DNA from: Squalus acanthias
Taxonomy: Eukaryota
Direction of reading: 5' to 3'
Length of the DNA stretch: 64,000 nucleotides
NCBI GenBank assembly: GCA_030390025.1
Contig: CM059430.1
Location: forward strand, 74,338,001-74,402,000
The notes under the pieces are model-generated. The model worked only from the letters and a program-made list of their open reading frames with translations, was not told the origin of the DNA and made no database searches. Positions 38,163-62,547 of the stretch are shown piece after piece. The translations under genes were made by a program, and so were the position numbers. Position 1 is the stretch's first letter; the number at the start of each line of letters is the position of its first letter.

Positions 38163-38280
38163 TTAAAACGACACTTAAATGAGTGCTTTTTCTGAGTACT
38201 TACGTGGATTGTCCACGAGGTCAAGTCCGGCGAAATGTCACAGCCGAGGGGGAGGCGAGGCGGGGGTAATTGAGTTTTAG
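38163..38280 (-). other. Structured 3' end of the R2 3' UTR
   Basis: TCAATTACC...GGACTTGACC-TCGTGGACAATCCACG-...AGAAAAAGCAC; contains a CGTGG/CCACG hairpin and resembles vertebrate R2 3' UTR ends as recalled from memory. Confidence 0.55.
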
Positions 38281-38861
38281 GATAGTATAGGCGGCTATGA
38301 CTATGTTTTTTCTAAAATGTTGTCCCTCAAACTGTCACCAAGCTTTGGGATACACCCACCTGCAGCGAAATGCCGGATCTATAGTTCTGACAGTTATTTG
38401 GCAGTGTTTGCCTTATTACCTGTCATCATTTGAAACTTGCAATTCATTATTAACATTACAGATGTGGCTAACACGTATTCTAACTTATACATTACAGATA
38501 GCGGGAGAAATTCGGTATCTCCCCGTTTGGGGCGCAATTATTGGCCGGGCACAATGTTTAGTGCCTGGCGCTTATTATCACCTCCGACTGCAAACCTGGC
38601 TTTTCTCGCCCCTGGAGGTGATTGGAGCGATAAATCAGGCGCTGCACACCTGTTTTAAGGTGCAAAAGCCAAAGAGCGAGGCGCTAACTCTGCGCCCGGG
38701 TGCAGCGCAGGTGATCTCAGTTAGCGATGGAATACAGACACACTGGCGCCGGCCAGTTCTTAAAGGGGAGGGTCAATCTTGATCTGCAGCCATACCCTGC
38801 TCTTTAGAGCCTTGAATCTCGGCCTGGAGAGACCTGTGCCTACATTTTCCAGCCAAAGACC

Positions 38862-40624
38862 ATGGAGAGGTTGAGAGGAGGAGCTCAGCACTTCAGCGAT
38901 CGGATCTTGGAGGCTCTGGTTGGCGCGGTGGAGCGTAGAAGATCAATAATCAAACCTGAGAGGGGCAGGAGGCCTTTGTCGCGTGACTACAGAAGAGTGT
39001 GGAGGGAGGTGGCTCAGCACGTCTCCTCCAGGAGCATGGGGCCCAGGAACCATACTCAATGCCGCAAAAAGTTCAACGACCTCAGTCGGTTCGTCAGGCT
39101 GAGTGATTTTTTTTCAATACGTCTCCATCCCTTCATTTCAAACTCATTCTATTGCCAGAGGGTCTTAAAACCCCATTGCCCAACACTCGTCCAACACCTA
39201 TGGACCTCTCATGAAACACACACGCACTTTCACCACCTTGCACACAGTAAGGTCTATTCAACGATGGGAGGCAAATCAGGAAAGACCATGGCTGCATACA
39301 TGAAGGACTATTCAACTTTGGGAGGCAAATCAGGCAAGCCCATGGCTGTATATCTACTCAGACGCCGTCCTTTTTCTTGCAGGCCAAGCTATCTCATAAC
39401 AGGAGACAGAAGCAACGGATGGCTGGAGGGTGGCCTCAGCTGCAATCCCTCAGTGAACTTGGGGCGCGTGTCCACAGGATTGTGGCCATCCAGGTGATCG
39501 GCCCCGTCACCCCTGGTGAGATCGAAACCTTCGGGACAGCAATGGTAAAGATTTCTCTCCTCTCTCATTCCACATTTCCCTCATAACACCAGCATTTGAC
39601 ACTTTCAATCCAACTTACTAAATCGCTCCAACCCTTCCTCACTTACTTTTCCCCTGTCCTAAAGCCACTCTTGTACCTCCCTGCTTTAAGATGGTGATTC
39701 ACCAGCTGAGGATACGGGCCCTCAAGCTACCAGTGGGAGCGAAGCTGCAGGCGAGGAGGAAGAGGAAGCCAGATCCTCAACACCCCCCTCTCCCGAGGAA
39801 GCCCATGTCCAGACTGGGACCACGTCTTCCCGGGAGGGGAGCATTGATGAAGGGTCTGATGAGGGTGAAGCTCCGGGACCCAGCGGGCTGCAGCAACACG
39901 ATGTGGCTAGGGAAGCTCGCGGGCCTTCTCCCCGGAGGGAGAGTAGGCCAGCTAGCCCTGCTGCACTGGACGCAGAGGAGGAGCGGCTCATCGCTGAAAT
40001 TAACACCCAGGTGGTGGATATGCATACACAGCTCATTAGTGCAGTGGGAAGGGTGCCTGAAACCTTTGATGCACTTGCAAGGAGTGTAGAGCCCTACGCG
40101 GTAGCACAGGCGGATGCCACGCAAATGCTTAGTGCTGCAATTCAGTCACTGGCTGCCATGATCAATCGCAGACTAGTCTCATGCAGTCTCAGATTGATGC
40201 CACGCAAGCACTGACGGCTGCCATTGTGGCTGGTTCAGACAAACTTCCCTGGGGCTCTCACATTGCCGCAGCAAGCCAGCAATCTGTGCTCCAGCTGATT
40301 GCTCTGGATGGTGAGGTGCTGCCCTGTGGGAGTGCCAGTGTGATGGTCGAGCAGGGAGGTGCTGTCCTCTCTCAAGATGAAAGCATTCCTGCTGCCACCA
40401 CTGTCAGTTCCCCACTGCACTTCCCACCGCCTGTAGCCCAGACTGCTGCTGCCCATGCAGAATTGGTGCAGTCAGCAGCCGGGCCCTCCAGGACCAGAGC
40501 TGATCGAGGCCACCGCTCAAGGGCATCTGTAGTCTCATGTTCTGACAATCAGCAGCCTTCCACCAGCCTTGCTGCAGCCACTGGGGCCCCATTACGGAGG
40601 AACAGTAGGGTGGGAAGTGTATAA
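38862..40624 (+). pseudogene. Harbinger Myb/SANT-like DNA-binding protein gene (three exons, disrupted)
   Basis: FSDRILEALV...WREVA...QCRKKFNDL, then AKLSHNRR..GG, then an acidic/low-complexity exon. First donor appears mutated (ctgagt) and there is a frameshift near 40190. Confidence 0.85.
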
Positions 40625-40934
40625 GTGCGCAAGGGAAGGAGATTACCATCGAAGGGCAAAAAGTAGGAGGTATGACGAAATGTTGGGAATTTTTTTATTA
40701 AAGGCTGAGGTTCGTGTTCGAACTTTTGTTTAGAGTTTTGGCCATTATCTGCAGGTTGTGAGAACCAGTTATGTTAATTAATGAGTTTTTGTGTTTGTTT
40801 CTATTAGTTTGTCATGAAGAAATGACATGCACAGAGTTTTTAAAATAAACAATTTATTGTAATGTAAATGTACAGATTTGGCCTTTGGAATCATTGCTTC
40901 CTTGGCTGGCTTTGGGGTTGGGGGTTGCTTTGAT

Positions 40935-42049
40935 TCATGTTGTTCTCCATGCCAAAAGCCATAAACTGAGTACGGGCTTAGAAGTGCTTGATATCAGTCG
41001 TTGATGGACGGCCCTTGCAGTTTCAACATTGTGGGCCTCCCTCCCGTCTTGGTGCTGCTGCTGATATTCCTCCTTATCTTCCTCTTCCTCCTCCTCCGGT
41101 CGTGCACCAAGGCCTGGTGGCATTGGCTGGTTCCTGAGGAATGGCAGGTTATGAAGAATGCAGCACACAACTATGAAGAGTGAGACTCGCTCAGACCAGT
41201 ACTGCGGGACTCCTCCTGAGTGTTCCCGAATGCAGAACCGTTGTTTGAGCACGCCAATCGTCTGCGCAATGATGTTCCTGTTGGCGAGATGTCTCTCACT
41301 GTACCGCAGCTCAGCAGGGGTGATGGAGGTTATGGAGCAGTGTCATCAGTCAGTTGCAGAGTGCTTAACCCTTGTCCCAGATGAGCCAACCACTTGGCTG
41401 ATGCGGTGCCTGGAAAAGGTCTGGCACACCAGTCTGGCGCAGGATAAAAACATGGTAACTGCTGCCAGGATAGCGGACATTGAGAGCGAGTATCAACTAT
41501 CTGTGGTCAGAGAACAATTGGATGTTTAAGGAGTGGAACCGCTTGCGGTTTAAGACAACCTCTGCATTCTGATGTAGTGCCTGCAATGCCACATGCTTGC
41601 AGTCAATGGCGCCTGGCTCCATGGAGAAGCCCGCTATCCTCGCAAAGCCCAATGTGCATCCATGCTGTTTGGCACGGGTCATCAGGAAAGAGATGTACTG
41701 GCGCCACCTTTTATCGAGGGCATTTGTGACCTGACAGATATAGCAATGGACCACTAACTGGGAGATATTGGCGATGTCCACAGTAGCTGCTTGAAAGGAG
41801 CTGGTGGCATAAAAATTCAGAGCCGCTGTGATCTTCAGTGCCACCGACAGAGACGTCCTGATCCTTAGTTGAGGCTCCAGATCTGGCTGCCGCAAATGGC
41901 AAAACTCAGTGACCACCTCCTTGCTGAAGCATAGCCTGTGCAAACACTGCTCCTCAGACAAATGAATGCAGGAGAATTGTTCCCAGAATACTCTGGGAGG
42001 GCAAGGTCTCCTGTGTAGAGGCCTGCTGGCCCTCCTCCGTCTGGCCATG
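40935..42049 (-). pseudogene. Harbinger (HARBI1-like) DDE transposase, disrupted
   Basis: ALNFYATSSFQ, GAIDCKHVAL, NRKRFHSLNIQL, LKQRF, IVVCCILHN; stops, frameshifts and an apparent internal deletion. Confidence 0.9.
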
Positions 42050-42809
42050 ATTGCCACTATCTCTCTGCGTCTCTTTACCGCTGATTCTGCAGGCGCAGGA
42101 CGACGCCCCAAATGAGTGCAGCCCCCAAGTTGCATGACAATCGAAGTAATGAAGGTCAAATCTAAAAGTACCTGCAAAGTGACGCTCATTAGCCAAAACT
42201 ACTACACGTAGCCTTGAATCTACGCAGATATCTCTCTCTCTCTCTCTCTCAGAATCTCTCCATCTCTCTGTCAGAATGTGTGGTGCAAAAATGTCTACCA
42301 CAGAAAAAGGCAGGAAGAGGGCGGCTTTAAATAGCACCCCCCCAGCCCCTCACCGAATTTGTGCACTGCCCCAAAACCTCTCGTCAATTTCGCGAGCGGC
42401 GCAAACATCACCGCGCCTGGGTGTTCGTTGCATTGCACCCCATTGGTTGCTAATGGGAGGTGCAAACCAATCGAATTTTTCCCCCATAGTGACTATTGTA
42501 AATAACTACTAATTCTAATATAATAAGGACAAAAAGAAAATCCGTATTATGGTTTTAACTACTTAGTTCCCGTTATAAGTCCATGTATTATTCTGGCCTT
42601 AATTTGGAGTCCATGAAAATTTGAAGCATTTGCAGTGTCAACAGTAATGTCACTCTTGAGGTTTCATTTGCGAAGACTTTGTATCGGTCAATTTTTAAGA
42701 ACTTCTTAAGTGCGTTATTCAGTCTAACCTTAAGTCTCCGATTACGAAAGCAAATATATTATATTGCATCCATTTGTCATCTCTTAAGTTACAGAAACCA
42801 GATGTTTGT

Positions 42810-43419
42810 GGCCCGTATTTTCCGATCGCAGGCCTCGGGCGGGCGGAGGCCTGCGACCTGGAAAAATGTAGGCCCTTACCTGAGGGCTCCCGGTACGCAC
42901 ACGCTTCCGCTCCTGGGCCTCTTCAAACTGGAAGTATGCTGGACCTAGGTATCACAGGGGCGCATGTTGTTCGCAGCGTCCCTGGGATCACGAGGGCCAT
43001 GGGGAGCCAATCAGAGAAGGAAATTTTCTTTCATATATTTGACATAAAGATCTGTCAACTATATGAATGGAGATCACCCCAAAAACATAGTAAAATTTTA
43101 AACAAAATTTATTTTTTTGAATAAGATAATTAAAGTTTTTTATGGCGCTAAAAATAAACTTACCTTTTTTAAAAGTATTTTACCAGGTGTAAGAATTGTA
43201 AGGTTTTTCTGCGTGCGGAGCGTCTCCAAAAAGCGGAACAATCCGCCCGTAGAGGGGCTTCTCCAGGGCAGCCGGAGGATCTGTCCGGACCATTCTTGAC
43301 TGATCGGAAATGCCGGTTTTCAGCGCATGCGCAGTTCATGCATGAAACTGGAATTTCCGATGTCCCTACGGGTGGGTACTCAGTGTGTACCCATCCTTAG
43401 GGACCGGAATGACTGGGCC
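42810..43419 (+). mobile_element. Harbinger-like MITE inserted in the R2 endonuclease region
   Basis: TIRs GGCCCGTATTTTCCG / CGGAATGACTGGGCC; R2 coding sequence resumes on both sides. Confidence 0.8.
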
Positions 43420-44199
43420 ATTATGTGCCTTCGATCTCCGCCCATGTCTTCTTCAGGGATTTGTTATTTTCCTTGTACTCTCTCGTCACATCGACTACGA
43501 CCAAATCATCACCATTCAGAAAGATTATGTCATGTATCCAAAGTTTGCCGTCTGAGAATTTGAGTCTGGGATCGATGTAGGCTGGCCAGCCATATGTACT
43601 GGTCTTTTTCTTCAGCCTTTCGAGAACCGTGTTGTGTTTCTTTATCTTTGCGTTCTTAACTGAGCGACAGCTTGCTGTTAGATGGGATAGGGTTTCGTTA
43701 GCAGCACCGCAGTTCCAGCAATGTTTCGCTGATCCGATCCTTCCGAGTGAAAGTGTGTATCTAGTGTGGTAGATATTTGATCTTAGTAGAAGAACGTTTA
43801 CAAAGTTCGATTGCTTAATTTTACTTTTTAAACTGATCCAGTTGTTTGAGATATTATCGTTAGGATAGCAAGTCAGCCCTGAGCCTTGCTATTGGAGTTT
43901 TGCCCAGTTTTCCAACTCCAAGCTTCTCCATTTTAATTATTCATTTATGTTGGTCTTCCTTTTCCTTAGCCGGTCCTCGGGTACTATATTTTGTAGTTGT
44001 TCTGCTATGTCCGCCTCTAGATCTTCCGATTCTGTACCACTGTCCTCAATGAATATTTTCTTCGATGATCCTTCGTGCACGTTTGCCTCTCTGAGTTCTT
44101 TAGGATTTCCCAGTTTTTCAATGTTGAGATTGTTGTTTGTTCAACAATACTTGAATGAGGCTCTTATGATAGGGTCGCTTGAGTTCTCCAAGACATAAT

Positions 44200-45091
44200 G
44201 GGGGAAAAATTCAGTTGGTTGCGCCTCCCTTTAGCACCTTAAGAGGGTGCTAATGGGGCGCAAATTGTATAGCGCACGGGCGCGGCGATGTTTGCGCCGC
44301 CCGCGAAATTAACTAGAAATTTTGCGGCAGAGCTAAACTCTACCGCTATGATCTCCTGCGCCGGCAGATCGTGACGTCAGTCGAGTGCGCAACACCTCGG
44401 TATCGCCCCGGAGCGGATATTGAGTGGCACCCCCTGCCTTACCACCTGCCGGTAGCAACAACAGGTTGAGGGGAGCGTTTTGCAGTCAGGAAGGGACTTG
44501 GGGAGCGCTATTTAAAGGTGACCATTTCCTGCCTTTTATTGTGGCAACATTTTAGAACCACGCATTCTGAGAGAGAGAGAGAGAGACTTCTGGAGAGATT
44601 CAACGCTGTGTGAAGGAGTTTTGGGTACTGAGCAGCCCTTTGCAGGTTCATTTTGATTTGCCCTTTCTGGTAAAGATTTAGAAGAGACTGTGGGGGCTGC
44701 ACTCTGAGCTCTTTCCCTGGTATTCTCCATTGTTGTTTCCAGCAGATTTGATGTGCAGGTCTCTCCAGGCCGAGATTCAAGGCTGCAATGAGCAGGATGT
44801 GGATGGAAAGCAAGATCAACCCTCCCCTTTAAGAACTGGCCCACGCCATTGTCTCTGTGTTCCAATGCTGACTGACATCGCATGAGCTTCGCCAGCGCTC
44901 TGAGGTAGCGCCTCGCTCCTCGGCCTTTGCGCCTTAAGATAGGTGTGAAGCACCTTATTTAGCGCTCCAATCACCTCCAGGGGCGATAAAAGTCAAGTTT
45001 GCAGTCGGTGGGGATAATTAGCGACAGGCGCTAATCTTTGCGCCCGGATGATAATTGCACCCCAAATGGGGCGATACTGAATTTCTCCCCC
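44200..45091 (-). mobile_element. Non-autonomous Harbinger deletion derivative inserted in the R2 ORF
   Basis: TIRs GGGGGAAAAATTCAG / CTGAATTTCTCCCCC, TSD AAT; both ends match the 38501-42485 element in reverse orientation; keeps the start of the Myb gene (MENTRERAQ). Confidence 0.9.
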
Positions 45092-48019
45092 AATGTTTCC
45101 TATTATCGCCGATGGTATCTGCATTTCCAAGTTGGATAGGCTCAATCTCCAATCTCTTGTTCTGAAGTAGAATGTTCCGTCGGAGATATCTTTGGGTAAG
45201 TGTAGAATTTCCTTGATAGCCTTTTTAATTATTCGGTCCATGAATAATTAGTGTAATCTGTGATACCTCTGTGAGAATAAGATGGTCGTAATTTCTCGGT
45301 ATCAGTTGTGTTTTTAATATCACAATCATCTGAGTGGGTTTGACTTCAATAACTTTGAGATTGCGTACCCAATTTGAAAGTTTTTTCTGGCCACTTATCT
45401 TCAGTGACATCTGCACATGGATCGATCTGAGCACCAAGATATTTTTTCATTGTTCCTGGGTTTATGTAATCCAGATATTTACTATCTAAGCCCCATTTCC
45501 TTCCTTGGTTATATGGGGAAGTCTTGTTACTAGTATTCAGTTGGAACCCAGCAATCTTTTTACGTTAATTGCCAGTCCTTTTTTCTTACAGAACGTCTCC
45601 AACATGGAACAGTTTTTGATCTCGGCATGGGAGTCGCTTAATATTTCAATGTAGTCAGCGATGCGAGTGCTGTGCATTTCCTTGAGCTTTTGTTACATCT
45701 CATCCATAAGCCGGAGCCATCCTTTTCTAGTTAGCAGAGGAATGGGACCATGGTTATGTTGAACAGAAGAGAAGAAAGAGAGTCGCCTTGTGTGATCCCT
45801 TTCTTGATGATTATTTTGTCTGTTATTTCCCTGTCTACTTCAATAATCGTTGTAGTTCCGGGGATAACGTTTTCAATTAGTTTAATGAACTGCTTGTTCA
45901 GCCCCATCCTGGCCAGACCCTTCGATATCAATTTGTGTACAGAGGAGTCGAATGCCTTGGCCAGGTCCACGAAAACCACAGCCAGTTGTTTTCGGCTGCT
46001 TTTCCCTCATTTTGTAATGTTTTGGAGTATGGCTATGTTCAAGTGACCTACAGGTTCTGCCGCTAAGAAGCCGTTTGTCTGGGATTTCTGCTGATAGCTT
46101 AACCTTTATGTGCTGATTTTGGTAAAGGGACGGATCAGTATGTCGCCTATTGATAATGGTCTCCAGTTATCTAAGCTTTTGAAGAGCTCTGTGTCTTCTG
46201 ATTTAGGGATACGTATTGTGCGACTTTATTCACGCTTTCTGGAATGGTTTTTGATTTCATCCATAGTGTGAAGATACTTGGCAGGAGGGTGAAATCGATT
46301 CCTTCTATGTTCATCAGATCTTCTGCTGAAGTGCCACCATGGCCTGGTACATTGCCTTTCTTCATCTCTTCCACGGCCGATTTAATCTCTGTTTCGCTTA
46401 TTTCTTTCATAAGGACTGTAAATTTGCTTTTTTGGTGCACCCTGCAAATGTGTCGATATCTGCCGTATCATTTGGTTTGGATACTTTGTTTCTGTAATAA
46501 AGTTCCAATTCTTCCTTTGTTAATGGACATTTGATTTGAACTGGACCGGCCATTACATGATTAGCCAATCTCGTTCTGCCTTTTTTTAACAGTGTTTGGT
46601 TCCTTTTGTAGTCAACCTATCTGCTGGTGTTATTTTAGTGCACCCGACTTGTTGGAGAATATTGCTGTTTTGTTCTTGCTGTTATTATTATTGCAACGCT
46701 TAGCTATGTTGTTTTCTGTTAAATTTCCCGTTGTGGACTCGATGAGAGCTACTCCACGTGTTAATTTTATTCTGAATCCCCTTGGTTTTGTAACAATTGT
46801 TCTGCTTCTATAATTAGTTTTGGCAAATCCATTTTATCCCTCTTAAGTTTTGATGGTGTCTTTCTTTGGTTATTATTCTCTGATAGTGACTTGGTACAAA
46901 AGATCATTGCGTTCTGCATCTGTTCTGTTGTTTCCGGGATTATTATTGGATTAATGGTTGTTACACTCTTCTTCCTCAAAGCTATGAATTCCCTTGATCT
47001 CCGCTTATCTGATATCTATCTGCTGGTTTTAGTTTTTAGTTCATTCCTTATTTTATCATTAATATTGTGACTACCTTTGGGTGTTAATGCTAATTGAAGG
47101 AGAAGGCATAAATCCTCATCCGACCATGCTGATTTCCTTCCTTTAGGTTTCTGGGGAACGGCATAATTTATCCTTTTCTCATTTCTTTGTACCGCATGCT
47201 GGTGCCATTCATGCTGTCTTAACCCACTATGTGTTTTAAATGTCTTCTGACAAATTGTGCATTGATAATCTTCTATTGGGTCGGGCTGCGTACTCCTTCT
47301 ACATTTGCCTTAGTGGCAGGCGGTGGCATGGTAATCGCCTTTTTGTTACATTTGGAACAATTGTTGATTTAGTTTGACGAATTACATTTTATGTTTTTAA
47401 ATGAACTAATTGTGTTAAGAATCGCTCTACCGGGAATGCTCAATCATTGCTCTGTTGGTTAGTGAATGATAACCTCGCTCTGATTCTTGTGATTATTTTT
47501 GGGTTCTATTCGAATCATTTCGCTATAGGCACCCTTTATTGTATCTATTAAATCCTCAATGTCGTGAATCTCTGTATTGGTATTTTTAATTCTACTATCC
47601 GGCGGAATTTTTAGGGCAGAATTGTGAAAGATAAGATGCTGAATGACGATTCCACTAGGTCTGTAATGATCATTTTCTGTAGCTGTTTCAGCATTTCCAT
47701 CAGGAAAAAATATCTCACCGTCTTTAACGACCGCAATCGGTATCCTACTGGGCACAAGAAATGGTCTTATACTGTATATATGCGGATTTCAGTGCTAGCC
47801 TGGCAGGAGTAGAGCTAGAGAACTCGAAGCTTTTGCGCTTAATATGCATTGTCGCTGGACGATTGGATACAATGCTGGGGACGTTTTGCTCCCGGGCCTT
47901 GTTCCAGCCGGAATGGTAATCCTTGAGTGGTTGTCCGATTGTTTTTAATGAAAATGTGTTTTCACTAAGCCTGCAGGGAACCTGATCTCCACAGCTCACC
48001 GTTACCATTTTGATTCCTT

Positions 48020-48177
48020 TGAGCAGTCGTTTAGCCAACACCGACGTGTTCTTCGCAGTGGGACCGCGGGGCAATAGGACACACCGTGATCGGAAATCTA
48101 AAGCACCAAATCAAATGTAACTACTTTCCCAAGTATGGATCACAAGCGCACTTAAGAGAGCCATATTTTCTCCTGCC
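48020..48177 (-). ncRNA. Decayed HDV-like ribozyme of the R2 5' UTR, including the 28S-derived leader
   Basis: Leader GGCAGGAGAAAATATGGCTCTCTTAAG; TAGTTAC (48123-48117) complementary to 28S GTAACTA; TCCCAC (48063-48058) as the P1 partner; hairpin AACAC-GTCG-GTGTT as P4; GCTAA as J4/2. Confidence 0.7.
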
Positions 48178-48611
48178 ACCAGCCTTCACTAGAACCGCAG
48201 TATGGAACGAATTGGTCTATTTCCTTATGGGAAAACAGTATTGTCCTTCTTGATGTCATATCTGCCAGTAAAAGACCCACCTATGCGTCACCGACATTAG
48301 AAAATCACGATCGGTTGCAATGAAAAATCAGCTCCTGGGCAATTACATATTTGCTGAAAATTCTCCTATAACCTGCGACTTGTCATTCCCTCTTGAGGAA
48401 GCTTCCAATTCTCTGCCCCAACTCCTTGCGCTCAAAACAATGATTGTTAAAATATAGAAGACCTATAATTTTGATGCAGCTTAGCTGTCAGCGTAAGGGC
48501 CGCGCTCAAGGTGAATGCAGGTACACTGCACTTCTCTGTATGTAATGTTGCACTAGAACTGCAAGTCACAGCGTGGATCAAAGAAGGCCAGGAGTCAGAT
48601 GGAGACATTGC

Positions 48612-49375
48612 GGCCCTGATTTTGTTGTGGTAATGACAGCGAAACTCTCAGCGTTCGCCGCCATTACTCCTCTGAAAGTGACAGCAGCTTCTGGAATCAG
48701 CATATGCGCAATAAAGGCAGACATCCAAAAGTTGCAGTCAGTCATTCCTTGCTCCTCGACAGTTTGCACTGTGGAACTCCCCAGAGCGGCTATTTCAAAT
48801 CAAATTCACAATTGTTGGCGAAAAGCTCCGCGATTACGCTGCAATATTGCTATTAACTATACACACACCCCTTCCCCCCACCCCCAAAAAAGTTAAACAT
48901 TGACGAAAAGGTTGTAATTGGGTTTTTAACAGTCTTTTGACTACTGAATAACCGATCTTGCCCTTAAACACTAATGCTATACTTGCGGAATGTCACTTTT
49001 TTTCCATTAATATGATAAGAATTACATGGCTTTTAAAATAATATATTTTCAAACTGTTTGTTTATGATACTAATGCTTTTACTTTCATCCTAGGTGCATG
49101 TCCCAATCTTCATTTTTCACTCTGTAAAATTTATAAAAAGTATTTAAATTCCTGGTTTGGTGTCTGTGAGAATTATTCAATGTGATTGGCTGCTTAGCCT
49201 GCTTGATGACATCACTGTTACTGTACGCCGGAGATTCGTTTGATTTGGCGCCAGATTCAAATAGTAGTCTAGAAAACTGAAATTCACGCCACAGAGATCG
49301 GCAGATTTTTGTGGGCAGGTATTTCGAGGTCAGCGGTGAGTGCTGTCACTTCTCAATGACCGCAAATTAAAGGCC
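48612..49375. mobile_element. Harbinger-like MITE, different family
   Basis: Imperfect TIRs GGCCCTGATTTTG / CAAATTAAAGGCC. Confidence 0.55.
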
Positions 49376-57883: not shown

Positions 57884-57997
57884 CTTTGGATGTAATGAAT
57901 GGAAGTGCCTTCACAGTGATAATGGCCAACAGTAGAATTATCACCGCACCCCCGGTACATCTAGCGATTAGAACAACACTGATCGTAGAGACAAACA
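57884..57997 (-). CDS. Gene B transmembrane exon VFVSTISVVLIARCTGGAVIILLLAIITVKALPFITSK
   Basis: Acceptor tttgatag, donor G|gtatga, 114 nt, phase 1-1; hydrophobic segment containing Arg. Confidence 0.75.
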
Positions 57998-58812
57998 CTA
58001 TCAAATTGATATAACATCAAAATTATAATGTATGGAATGTAAAACGTATATACAGAGTTCAAATTTTATAAACATATTTCCAAATATACTCCTATGAGAA
58101 TAAAACAACGTGCATAAAGCCTCACCAGATCGATTTCATTATCTCTGTATTCACCAGATTTGTGTGAAACCGGAAACAAATAGTTTGAAATACCCAGTAG
58201 TTTGGATACATAGCAGCAATATTAAATAATGGGAAGAAAACTACACCGAATGGTCGTCTTCTAATTGACGCGATAAAGCGCATTGGATAAGAATTCATCT
58301 GGTCGCGAGATGTCGAAAATAATCAATTAGGTTTGGATGTTTTCTCTGATCAGTATATAGCACAAACTCTGAAAGATATTAAGTTAAGAATTCGTTCGTG
58401 TTTCTCTTTGCAGCCAATCTTCAACAAGGCTTTTTTCCAACTCTCCACAAATGCGACCAAATTAATTATAATTTCATATTTTGTATAGGGTCGAGGGAGC
58501 CGCACTGTGCATCTGCTGATGCTGAGAATGACCTTGGACTGCTTTTGGCTGCAGGAGTGTGAAGGCCTTCAATTACCCACCTCCGTACCTACACCCCTCA
58601 CTAACTTTTCCAGTTTCTGGCATCAAAGCTCAACGTGCTCCCCCTTCTAAGCTTGCAACGTTATGACAGTTAGTCTGAATTATGTAAGCAATGCTGAAGA
58701 CTGGTGTTCACTATTGGCTAAGTTGCTTACGTCCAACTTAATTCTCATCTGATTGAAATAAGCAATATGAGATGGAATCGCGATTAATGTACAACGTGTG
58801 ATTTAATATTAC

Positions 58813-59118
58813 CTTCGTTAGCAACGGTGTAGCTGGCATTAGCTGGAATTGAGTTAGAAACGTGATGTACTTGACAGGTGTAAACTGTGCCGTGCATGAT
58901 TGGCTCTGTCTCCTCTAAGGAGCTGATAACTTCATACAGTCCCTCTGTCTTTGCGTGTTGTTCATTTCTAAATCCAGTCAGGATTGTGGTACCATTTTTA
59001 TGCCAGGTGAGGTTAAAGTCGTTCGGGTAAAAAGGAGCCGTTCTGCACTGGAGCCTCAGAGAAACGGATGAAGCCCCTTCGGATGATACGGATACAATTA
59101 TCAGGGGAGCAGGGGAAG
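58813..59118 (-). CDS. Gene B exon 3: C1-set Ig domain
   Basis: 306 nt, phase 1-1; LQCRTAPFYP, LTWHKNG, YEVISSL, YTCQVHH. Confidence 0.92.
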
Positions 59119-59329
59119 CTAAATGATAAAGAACAAAATTCAGATAAAGCAAAACATCTGACATGTATTCTATCTACTCTTTGATTTTGTAAAATAACAA
59201 ACAGCTCTTTCCGGGCAGCGTAGTTGTATTGATAATCATTATTTATCCTAACTGGAGCCCAATCTAAGGTTTTCTTCGCTGAAGCTAAACGTTCCTCCCC
59301 CGCGGTATTGACATATCAACGTTTTATAT

Positions 59330-59590
59330 AGTAAAGTTGATTTACAACATTGGGCCTCTTTTTGTTAATACCAATGTGTTCGAATCGCCAGGCTGCGCTT
59401 AAATTGTTGCCAGAGTACAGTCGAGGTTCTGCTGCTATACCGAGAAGATTTCTTCTTCTGGAAAATGACAATCGAGTTCGGACCTTGGTCTGGACTACAA
59501 CACTTGCTTTATCCTCTGCGTTTCGCCAGTTCCACGGTACGCCGTTCAGGAATTTTATGTGGAATGCAGAATCTGGAAGCGCCCTCTAAA
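59330..59590 (-). pseudogene. Degenerate V-like pseudo-exon in intron 2 of gene B
   Basis: Remnants VPWNWR, VRTRL and LDCTLATI*AQPGDS in shifting frames. Confidence 0.4.
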
Positions 59591-59968
59591 AGATGCTAAT
59601 CGGAATCGTGCTCTTCTAATTAGATAAACGACATTTAAAAATGTATAATATTTCGAGTAAGCCCAAGATTCTTCATCCTGCCAATTTGTGCTCAAACTTA
59701 AATCCTCTTTTATTTCCCAGCCTTGATTTCACTTTTATCGACAAACAGAAAATCAAATATTTATTGCTGATATAGGTCAGTTGTCACGTTTTGCAGAGAC
59801 CCTGGGACTGGAAACTTTCCATGTTGTTGAACACATGTCCTTCTAAACAAATAGAAAGCTCTACTATTTTATACAGAATGCATTGCTGTATTGAACGCCT
59901 TTGTTAAGCGCAGTTTAAATAGCTGCAGCAACTAAACACTTCACGTTTCTAATTGCAGCCACACTTAC

Positions 59969-60280
59969 CATATACAATAAGTTGTACACCACTATTTTTT
60001 GCAACCGTTTGTTGCTGATATTTTGCTACAGCGTAATACGTTCCGGCGTCCGGGATAGTTACATTCAGGATGTGAAGGTAGGCGCCGCCTCTCTTTACAC
60101 TGAACAATTTTCTGCTGTCTTCTTGCAGGAAGGTCTTATTACCATCTCTCCACCAGTAAACAATTACGTTTGAATGATCGAGATCGAAGGGGAAAGAACA
60201 TCGGAAGGTAACTTCTGTGCCTCTGAGCGCCTTCTTTTTTACAATATCCGGAGACACCTTGTCCGATGTGCCCATAGCAA
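59969..60280 (-). CDS. Gene B exon 2: VJ-type V-set domain, F-strand Cys replaced (YYA)
   Basis: 312 nt, phase 1-1, canonical splice sites, open frame; VTFRC, VYWWR, DAGTYYA, KNSGVQLIV. Confidence 0.9.
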
Positions 60281-60627
60281 CTATGAACAAAAAATGCATA
60301 TTCGGGTTTAATCATTCAGAAATAAGGAAGATGAACTGCAGCACCAAAATAACATCGTGCGTCCAGTCCTTTCCAAATGATACATTTGTAATTCAATGTA
60401 CCTAATTATAAGACTTATTTTCCAGTTTCTGAATGAGTTTTCTCATAGAATTATCATAAATAACATTACCTTTGTCAGCCAGTTATTTCCCTCTGGCAAG
60501 GAACACATGATATGAAAACAATTCATCAAATTAAAACAGTATAAACAATACCCGTTTGCACATCAACTATAAGCTGATGTGCTGTGTCAGGAACAGTTAA
60601 TGCATACAAAAAGTAATAAAAGTGTAC

Positions 60628-60682
60628 CTGGATACAAAATGCACAGGAAACGCATGCCCCAAAGTGACACATTCATAAACAT
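60628..60682 (-). CDS. Gene B exon 1: signal peptide MFMNVSLWGMRFLCILYP
   Basis: 55 nt, phase-1 donor CAG|gtacac, paralogous to 14991-15045. Confidence 0.72.
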
Positions 60683-62547
60683 ATCGGCAAAGAAAATACG
60701 GTAGATCATCCGTCGTGTCTTAGAGCGGAATGGGTGAAGATTTGACGAATGGGCGGCTGTGTGCTTAATATAATCTCCTACTGATCTGTGATGTCAGACA
60801 GCACATGATTTTTTAATTGCATAATGTTTTTTCATTCATTCGCGTAATGTGGGCATCGCTGGCACGTCCAGCATTTATTACCATTCCTAGTTACCACTGA
60901 GAAGTTGATGGTGAGCTGCTTTCTTGAACAGCCTCAGTTTTTCGCAGCGCACAACTGAATGGTTTGGTAGGCTTTTTCAGAGAGCAGTTAAGAGTTCACC
61001 ACATTAGTGGGGAAATGCATGCCCCTTAGAGGTGATCAGCCAAGGTAGTTGTGAGCAGAAACGGTAGCAGGAACTAGGGGGTTGTAGTAAAAGCAAAATA
61101 CAGAGCTTAATACAATTGCACATGAGCTCACATTCCATAAATCCTCTTTTCTTCACCCGCCAAGACGGACGAATACTGCATATCCTCGGTGATTTTGATT
61201 CTGAAGAATCTGCTAATTGGGTCCATTGTTGTCCTAAGAAGGATAGCCTGAGTACGAAAGTCCATTTCTGTCGGGCTGCTTCGTGTAAGAAATATTATTG
61301 GAAGTAAGGATGTTCCACAGATTGTTTGACCGAGCCACAATTAGAAGACTTGATGGCACGGCAATATTGTGGTAGTGGAGGTAATTGAATGTAGGTGGAA
61401 TAACTGTGTCGACTTTCATATTTATCTTCGAATTGCTTTTAAGAATTTCAGAGCATTATATGGACTATGGATATTAGTCATTTTACTATAAAAACTGTGA
61501 CTACAGTTGGATTCAGGTCCCCAGTAGCAGTATAACTCGCCAGTCAGGTTCCGAATTTAATCTGGAGCTCATTGGTGTCAAGCAGTGATAGAGTGAAATG
61601 CTCTCCGCCTCGAAAATCAGTCCCCTATAACTTGTGGCTGGGTGTAAAAAGCAGCATCTCCTGGACATTCAACAAGCTATTCAATAAATTGCGATGTGGA
61701 AACATGGCAGTTTTGTCACTTTAGCCCATCTGTCTAACACTCCGTCCGACGCCGCTTAAGAAAAGCGTTAAACCAACGCCCAAAAATTGAAATCACCTCT
61801 ATAATCTGTAATCCCAACATAAAAATGTGTTGTCAGTTTCATGGTATTTTCCCCGATATCCCAGCATAACTTCTCGTGAATATCTGCGGTAAGCCCGTGA
61901 AAATTCTGGTCCTTAAAGTTTTAGCATTTTCCCTTGGTCAAGACCAAATTTGGATACAATTTCATTGAGAATTTTTATTTAAAAATCGCAGTTATAGTTA
62001 CATCCCAAAGTAGGCAGTTTCACCAAGTAATAAATAAACTAAATTTAGTTGGAGGTAGAAAGATACAAAAGTCTAATTTAGCAAATGATATATATCAAAA
62101 ATTGAAATTAAAAAATACTTGCCTTATGCATTGCGTTAATGTGCGTAGTTAATATAAAACTGCACTGTCACTTATTGTAAATAACTGACCTTTATAGTTA
62201 AATGGTGTACCAGAAAATCATTTATTGAGCGCTTGTTTCAACTCATTCTCTTGGAATTACTGCAGAGTTTCCTGCCAACTCCCTACACAGCATAGGAGAA
62301 GCATTAGTGGGAACCCCAGAGAAAGTCACAGCAAATATTTCAAATTCCTGATTAAAACCTCATCAGCTACGCTATGACGAGGTCACAAATTCTGAGAAAA
62401 TAGTATATCAGCGATGGTTCCTGTCTGTTTTTTCACTTAATTCAACAAACCCGTGCTAATGGCTGAGCTGACCTTAGCATTGAATTAACTGCTTTATTTT
62501 GTTATTGGCTGTAACGAGCGGTAGCGATTCTGCATTTGACCAATAAT

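Follow-up and report, generated by a model that had tools for sequence, protein, structure and literature searches.

The 64,000-nucleotide stretch of Squalus acanthias DNA analysed here (the window; C6:74338001-74402000 of a 3.7 Gb genome) carries, from 48177 to 38163 on its minus strand, an R2 retrotransposon relic that opens with a short piece of 28S rDNA. The best reading of this locus, to which we give a probability of about 0.85, is that R2 RNA transcribed from rDNA was cleaved by its own ribozyme 28 nt upstream of the site of insertion and then inserted off target. This reading is founded on the 28S leader, the -28 edge in many copies, the ribozyme helices of the family, the protein remnants and the non-rDNA flanks, all of which are observed; from these we infer the cleavage, an rDNA parent for the window's sublineage and the chemistry of insertion. 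The ribozyme and the -28 site are textbook knowledge, and on its own the window locus is a decayed example of R2 biology that is already familiar. What is new is a genome-wide set of -28 fossils and a hotspot at a single position of a CR1 LINE, both of which go beyond the first-pass annotation of this DNA.

A dead R2 copy with a 28S leader

The first-pass annotation had noted a 27-nucleotide similarity to 28S at the element's 5' end, and comparison with a natural rDNA copy from the same genome (L078) bears this out: minus-strand positions 48177-48151 are identical to 28S -28 to -2 of the R2 target at 23 of 27 positions. The next-best match in the window reaches 19/27 and the best of 100 shuffles 20/27, with a binomial expectation of about 1e-5 per window; the match is not due to chance. 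Its upstream end is as abrupt as had been described, with only 3 of 12 bases matching 28S beyond -28. Three of the four leader mismatches (-20, -17 and -12) are private to the window copy, the 28S base being kept at these positions in the paralogues L023 (leader 25/27) and L025 (leader 23/27). Contigs of the independent runs X2 and X4 (a run pair from one sample) read through 47787-48660 with no joint and thereby show that the junction is no assembly artefact; they differ from the window by one letter inside the ribozyme, at 48051. No rDNA lies on either side of the copy, in which 28S sequence is limited to the leader and at most 4-5 nt at the 3' end; the conserved 28S insertion site is occupied instead by relatives elsewhere in the genome.

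Without later insertions the element measures about 4.5 kb, and it is dead. The 5' part of its broken ORF (45097-48000, minus strand) is interrupted by many stops and frameshifts and contains remnants of ZnF3 and ZnF2, an intact ZnF1 (47261-47196), a Myb-like region and the reverse transcriptase domain (Pfam RVT_1, 46006-45734, minus strand); ZnF2, ZnF3 and Myb are frameshifted remnants that were read by eye. The zinc knuckle and restriction-like endonuclease region follows at 43422-44196 (minus strand; open frame 43888-43424), then the end of the ORF with the start of the 3' UTR (42486-42803, minus strand), and the remaining 3' UTR (38163-38497, minus strand) runs to the 3' junction, where the flank starts CAGCG (TAGCG in the paralogue L089) and no 28S follows. 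These parts are separated by a Harbinger-related short element with inverted ends (44197-45096) that is missing from the paralogues, a later repeat (42804-43421) missing from the paralogue at C6:74.467 Mb, and, within the 3' UTR, a later Harbinger DNA transposon (38498-42485) with remnants of DDE_Tnp_4 and Myb/SANT ORFs, again missing from the paralogues. Both ORFs of this Harbinger are decayed, and the related short element lies in the opposite orientation.

Pieces of the window align along the ORF of an intact relative on C86 (L062) at 37-62% identity, with Pfam matches to RVT_1, zf-C2H2 and zf-RVT. The unbroken 1075-aa frame of L062 (3920-7144, minus strand) spans the end of ZnF1 to the endonuclease, with one frameshift region before ZnF3/ZnF2. 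This copy lies outside rDNA, in what we take to be an L2-type LINE. Its frame matches solved R2 proteins with E values of 4e-193 to 1e-188 (turtle 4e-193, finch 6e-189), and the order ZnF3-ZnF2-ZnF1-Myb-RT-knuckle-endonuclease is that of the lineage-A vertebrate R2 proteins (PDB 9nl2, 9nl3 and 9dou), to which it is a strong match. A single R2-homologous ORF with reverse transcriptase, zinc knuckle and restriction-like endonuclease is thus found in the family, the window's own version being broken. Three zinc fingers and Myb are clear in the relatives L059, L062, L064 and L080, which places them in lineage A, a group whose DNA-binding domains sit upstream of the nick according to the accessible text of PMC11204384 and PMC12180492. 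Judged from its sequence, the window element is a dead, full-length lineage-A R2-derived copy outside the canonical site.

After insertion the locus was duplicated in tandem into four units, the paralogue units being about 83-87% identical; the count rests on genome-wide matches of the 3' flank, in a region examined to C6:74.532 Mb. The insertion is therefore old, having later been copied in this duplication and having received three transposon insertions. A genome-wide search for an empty allele returned four matches of the 3' flank, all of them paralogues carrying the R2 3' end; in the paralogue at C6:74.47 Mb the 5' end has been deleted. The segmental duplication extends over about 14000-62500 of the window and C6:74.398-74.532 Mb, and a 4.6 kb duplicated stretch at 57980-62547 is 94% identical, perhaps through gene conversion. 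A quick test of paralogue conservation found no gene within the duplicated unit.

The ribozyme fold and the -28 edge

The motifs that had been quoted downstream of the leader are all present on the minus strand. TAGTTAC (48117-48123) is the 3' strand of the P1 extension, complementary at 7/7 positions to canonical 28S -21 to -15 and at 5/7 to the leader of the window copy, the first seven bases of which would form the 5' strand of P1 and the next seven that of the P1 extension. CCCCGCGG-TCCCAC occupies 48071-48058 and GGCTAA 48036-48031. In the predicted fold a decayed segment (48057-48081, minus strand) holds the P2 5' strand (48081-48076), P3/L3 (48074-48064) and the P1 3' strand (48063-48057), and the adjoining segment (48025-48056, minus strand) holds the 3' side of P1.1 (48056-48055, one pair broken), the 5 bp P4 hairpin (48050-48037), J4/2 with its presumed catalytic C at 48034, a role taken over from the ribozymes in the available text of PMC3774820, and the P2 3' strand (48030-48025).

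Pairing in the window copy amounts to 5/7 in P1, 5/7 in the P1 extension, 4/6 in P2, 1/2 in P1.1 and 5/5 in P4, with two G-U wobbles in P3; the J4/2 C is kept, and the first base of L3 is G where other copies have U. The ribozyme of this copy is probably inactive. Because the damage in P2, in P3 and at -25 is common to the paralogues, decay may predate the insertion. The search with HDV-like models that the first-pass annotation had proposed came back empty, with no gathering-score Rfam match in the window and no HDV family at E<=10 in 47000-49000, a weak test given an 88-nt J1/2 and the decay; single-strand folding, by a program that cannot form pseudoknots, was not better than shuffles (z +0.66).

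The expectation that a double pseudoknot can be built stands for the family and only in part for the window copy, where P1, P1.1, P2 and P3 have suffered damage. We aligned 22 of the gathered 5' ends, excluding those with a long or interrupted J1/2 and near-identical duplicates; the alignment contains P1, the P1 extension, a J1/2 hairpin, P2, P3, P1.1 and P4, nested in HDV order. Pairing is found in 86.9% of 810 cells, against 29-46% for slid partners, and in 70-97% of cells per helix, the P2 figure being too low since some rows are offset by one column. The covariation score was reached by 0 of 500 shuffles, but the two pair-count measures separated less well, at 25/500 and 78/500, in tests of a kind that relatedness inflates. 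Two-sided compensatory change affects one of the 14 pairs with a 28S strand (in a single cell), compared with nine of 13 in the J1/2 hairpin and P4, as would be expected if an invariant 28S gene re-supplies the leader.

The R2 ribozymes of zebra finch, silkmoth and earwig (Eickbush, Burke, Eickbush 2013, PMC3774820) have, in the text available, the same P1 from 28S -28 to -22, the same helix order, the same L3/P3 and J4/2 motifs and likewise leader tandem duplications at rDNA junctions, seen here in L015-L017 and L172. The cleavage edge was located there by assay and from rDNA duplications, whereas here it is read from sequence against unrelated non-rDNA flanks, with the fold of the window copy decayed.

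We surveyed this edge with a boundary-blind pattern, 28S -23 to -8 combined with a base other than that of 28S at -42, that finds about three quarters of the non-rDNA sites. Four of its 19 matches are target duplications in tandem within rDNA; at the other 15 sites the leader starts at -28 in 11 (two of which are duplicates of one C21 insertion), at -25 to -23 in four and between -29 and -41 in none, edges beyond -42 being invisible to the pattern. All 29 independent non-rDNA 5' ends taken together start at -28 in 17 cases, at -27 to -23 in ten and at -32 in two (a weak 3/4 extension), in a set that is biased because 20 of its leaders came from a pattern requiring a -28 edge; only the boundary-blind search is free of this bias. 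The -28 start thus recurs in independent insertions with unrelated flanks. It coincides with the commonest R2 cleavage site, whose length junction duplications match (PMC3774820, accessible text), and in P1 the element pairs with the leader's first seven bases. Together these observations lend weight to the earlier suggestion that the 5' boundary records a self-cleavage site.

Some dispersed copies carry a longer 28S leader, reaching -68 in L064 (6191-6131) and -132 in three or four copies on C27 (L084, L117 and L162). Together with the 12 of 29 5' ends that start elsewhere than at -28, they show that not every template was cut at -28; the copies with long leaders perhaps stem from uncleaved or otherwise processed co-transcripts.

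Insertion at a single CR1 position

A single site in a CR1 LINE, in the part of ORF2 that encodes the C-terminus, accounts for 22 of the 39 independent non-rDNA 3' junctions, one of the 22 lying 17 nt downstream; R2 has the same sense there as the CR1 ORF. We take this LINE to be CR1 by its RGH...FF..RVV..WN motif and its upstream RT frame rather than by a library match. The figures are a hand tally that began from 57 3'-junction rows (26 CR1, 23 other and 8 28S). L058 was transferred to the CR1 class and L176 added to it, and two duplicated insertions, represented by six and two rows, were each counted once, which gives 22. The other class, with L058 gone, was reduced further by two rows that proved false, two paralogues of the window and two junctions of tandem or nested elements, and enlarged by L088, which gives 17. 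Among the loci found only via the window's RT piece, a subset blind to the flanks, 11 of 18 are at the CR1 site. The 28S-flanked junction rows number 16, uncollapsed, in an assembly whose rDNA is likely under-represented. At the other end of the elements, 15 of 29 5' ends adjoin the same CR1 sequence, whose retained part stops at 0 to -27, counted from the 3' junction, with 0-10 additional bases. The window copy sits outside the CR1 site; among non-CR1 flanks, six start TAGC (28S-like) and two TAGT (CR1-like).

The empty CR1 site is present in 2,079 exact 33-base copies in the genome, and even 100,000 such sites would make up only about 1e-5 of strand positions. In each of twelve empty sites read over their whole length, 13-19 of the 44 positions from -38 to +6 agree with 28S and the 28S 27-mer is lacking, while 15 filled sites carry the 28S leader. 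Overall identity between CR1 and 28S ranks only in the top 1-6% of window positions. Around the junction 9 of 11 positions match, and C-26, A-22, T-20 and A-19 are found in 11-12 of the 12 sites; the bases in common are T-5, A-4, A-3, G-2, T+1, A+2 and G+3 together with the in-register C-26, A-22, T-20 and A-19, and A-31, G-27 and T-6 of 28S are absent. According to the accessible text of two studies, the determinants of R2Bm are A-31, G-27, C-26, A-22 and T-6, T-5, A-3, T+1 (PMC10499050), and R2Tg off-targets are enriched for T-20, positions -19 to -25 and 4-5 nt downstream (PMC12222951). Since the CR1 site holds some determinants and misses A-31, G-27 and T-6, its fit to the 28S target is partial, and abundance and a few key bases together are the likely explanation of the hotspot. 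A GCGGG near -37 in CR1 was considered as a mimic and dropped, being one base out of register and variable among the 12 empty sites.

Off-rDNA copies of R2 are known and were called rare (Xiong et al. 1988, quoted in the available part of PMC10499050). As far as the accessible text of Stage and Eickbush (2009, PMC2718515) goes, extra-rDNA R1 and R2 likewise lie off target at near-cognate, often repeated sites, and melanogaster-type R1 outside 28S carries 7-28 bp of upstream 28S, the same logic as the leader of the window copy. The extra-rDNA R2 copies of these two sources are rare and scattered, whereas here more than half of the non-rDNA junctions share one LINE position and stem from many sublineages. 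R2NS, R8 and R9 (Kojima et al. 2016, PMC5035012) are also R2-clade elements away from the canonical site; in the portion available, R2NS has lost specificity and R8 and R9 have moved within rDNA, whereas the S. acanthias elements keep a 28S leader and canonical-site relatives. They differ from R2NS in that their junctions concentrate at 28S and one CR1 site and their leaders are 28S-derived. The survey of chondrichthyan R2 by Hassan et al. (2026, PMC13188248) kept 28S-flanked copies, and most of those described here were found outside rDNA; its accessible text assigns chondrichthyan R2 to lineages A and D and mentions non-rDNA R2-like elements from sponges only. Our search of the literature, which covered the main text of mostly open-access papers, returned no report of an R2 target in CR1 or of dispersed chondrichthyan R2.

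rDNA relatives and the origin of the leader

The canonical 28S site is occupied by autonomous (L077, L078, L079 and L169) and non-autonomous copies (L015-L018, L167, L168, L170 and L172), each with more than 1 kb of 28S on either side and some, L015-L017 and L172, with tandem target duplications. The dispersed non-autonomous copies L019, L020, L135 and L138 are 86-93% identical to rDNA-resident ones over about 1.1 kb, and for the majority of dispersed autonomous copies identity to the nearest rDNA insert is 63-79% (45 loci against seven inserts). A search for an rDNA-resident member of the window's sublineage found none, the best match to an rDNA insert being the 67-nt ribozyme core. A tree built from 36 RT pieces (each one alignment piece of >=500 nt, four of 40 loci being too short; midpoint root only) shows at least eight sublineages with few copies each, and places the window copy with its paralogues on a branch of their own, close to L088 and to L077-L079, which reside in rDNA. 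Non-autonomous copies have left leader fossils as well.

Several non-autonomous forms deserve separate description. A 1.7 kb R2 derivative at the canonical 28S site (L016:1895-3647, also L015, L017 and L018) has three HDV-like ribozyme cores in tandem, two internal decayed 28S leader copies and two tandem target duplications at its 5' junction. Decayed, scattered rDNA units contain a 1.15 kb SIDE-like element (L167:4767-5915, L168:4937-6091 and a further four on C26), and its close kin L135, L138, L136 and L134 are outside rDNA with a -28 leader. In the available text of Eickbush and Eickbush (2012, PMC3414825), R2 SIDEs similarly combine the ribozyme and R2 3' end without an ORF at the 28S site, as do these 1.15 and 1.7 kb forms; the SIDEs described there are from Drosophila, whereas those found here are from a vertebrate and also dispersed, one form having three tandem cores. 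The window copy is no SIDE.

Because the family has rDNA-resident members and the leader is unchanged, we infer an rDNA parent for the window copy, and the earlier proposal that its processed RNA was copied into a non-rDNA site gains support to that extent. The parent R2 would have resided in a 28S gene and been co-transcribed with it; its HDV-like ribozyme would have cut the co-transcript at -28, leaving a 28S leader on the RNA. Target-primed reverse transcription may then have copied this RNA, through to its terminus, into an off-target site. With no homologous target for annealing, the cDNA end would have been attached to flanking DNA once 0-27 bases of the target had been lost, as at the CR1 sites, and the leader thereby fixed in the genome. 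Such events appear to have recurred over many R2 sublineages, and were likely drawn to a near-cognate CR1 site sharing bases that R2 proteins are reported to read.

The leader could also be simply the element's own 5' end, inherited from a dispersed parent, CR1-embedded for many relatives, that was transcribed by read-through from a CR1 or host promoter and freed by its self-contained ribozyme in a second, rDNA-independent R2 cycle. It would suit such a cycle that 22 of 39 junctions are concentrated at a single CR1 site, oriented with the CR1 ORF, and a leader-bearing copy does carry the whole ribozyme in cis. The 28S-flanked junction rows found (16) are fewer than the insertions outside rDNA (39), most autonomous dispersed sublineages, the window's included, are without a close rDNA-resident member (63-79% identity for most), and internalised leaders do exist inside the three-ribozyme element. 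Missing parents can, however, be explained by collapse of rDNA in assemblies and by its turnover (PMC13580325, accessible text). The leader, moreover, stays 28S-identical without compensatory change though the RT regions of the sublineages differ by 20-40%, which is unexpected if it were freely inherited; the sublineages have few copies and no burst, and the non-CR1 flanks are 28S-like in six cases against two CR1-like ones. We consider this origin of the window's leader quite unlikely. The wider idea that R2 uses CR1 as a second, high-copy target, where embedded copies transcribe, self-cleave and propagate without rDNA, is also unlikely in our judgement, if conceivable; such a two-home cycle, if true, would buffer R2 against rDNA loss.

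A third explanation would make the leader host DNA, a 28S-like 27-mer that existed before insertion and marked the target rather than an RNA end. All four genomic matches of the window's 3' flank are filled and leave no empty allele to inspect, and the flanks are mildly target-like, with TAGCG after the 3' end in L089 and GCGGGTA 20 nt upstream in two paralogues. Yet the empty CR1 sites (2,079 exact, 12 examined) are without the 27-mer that 15 filled ones carry as a leader, and 29 unrelated sites would each need a mimic ending at the P1 boundary, which makes this very unlikely. Transfer at the DNA level of an R2-inserted piece of rDNA by recombination or duplication, its flanking 28S lost or trimmed, is hardly credible: decayed rDNA units with R2 or non-autonomous inserts are indeed scattered on C3, C7, C26 and C30, but these keep 1.3-2.3 kb of 28S where the window copy has none downstream (4-5 nt at most), and DNA breakpoints would not cluster at -28 and +1, the former being where the window copy stops like many others.

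If the preferred reading, off-target insertion of -28-cleaved RNA from rDNA, is right, these fossils would be a natural record of the 5' ends of processed R2 RNAs from many extinct sublineages erased by rDNA turnover. They would also define a natural off-target rule for lineage-A R2 proteins, a group now used for gene insertion into human rDNA. The bases common to CR1 and 28S include ones read by R2Bm or enriched at R2Tg off-targets (available text of PMC10499050 and PMC12222951), and this sharing opens the minimal target of a vertebrate R2 to direct testing. Both the fossil record and the CR1 site bear on how R2 persists despite purging from rDNA, a question treated in PMC13580325, the accessible part of which describes R2 elements lacking the canonical site as few and cautions that present-day locations can be misleading, since copies are not lost from rDNA at the same rate as from elsewhere in the genome.

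Other arrangements were seen among the dispersed copies. The non-autonomous L019 (C20:15332162) and L020 (C2:175438043) share the same 3' flank in another repeat, possibly a second, minor hotspot or a duplicated insertion. Head-to-tail or nested R2/SIDE copies, a 3' end abutting a 5' region, occur at L064:2949-3110 and L112/L161 (C19:33.495-33.499 Mb). Two more R2 insertions have been segmentally duplicated, one into six copies (L124, L125 and L130-L133; C20:7.83-7.98 Mb) and the other into seven or more (L067-L072 and L082).
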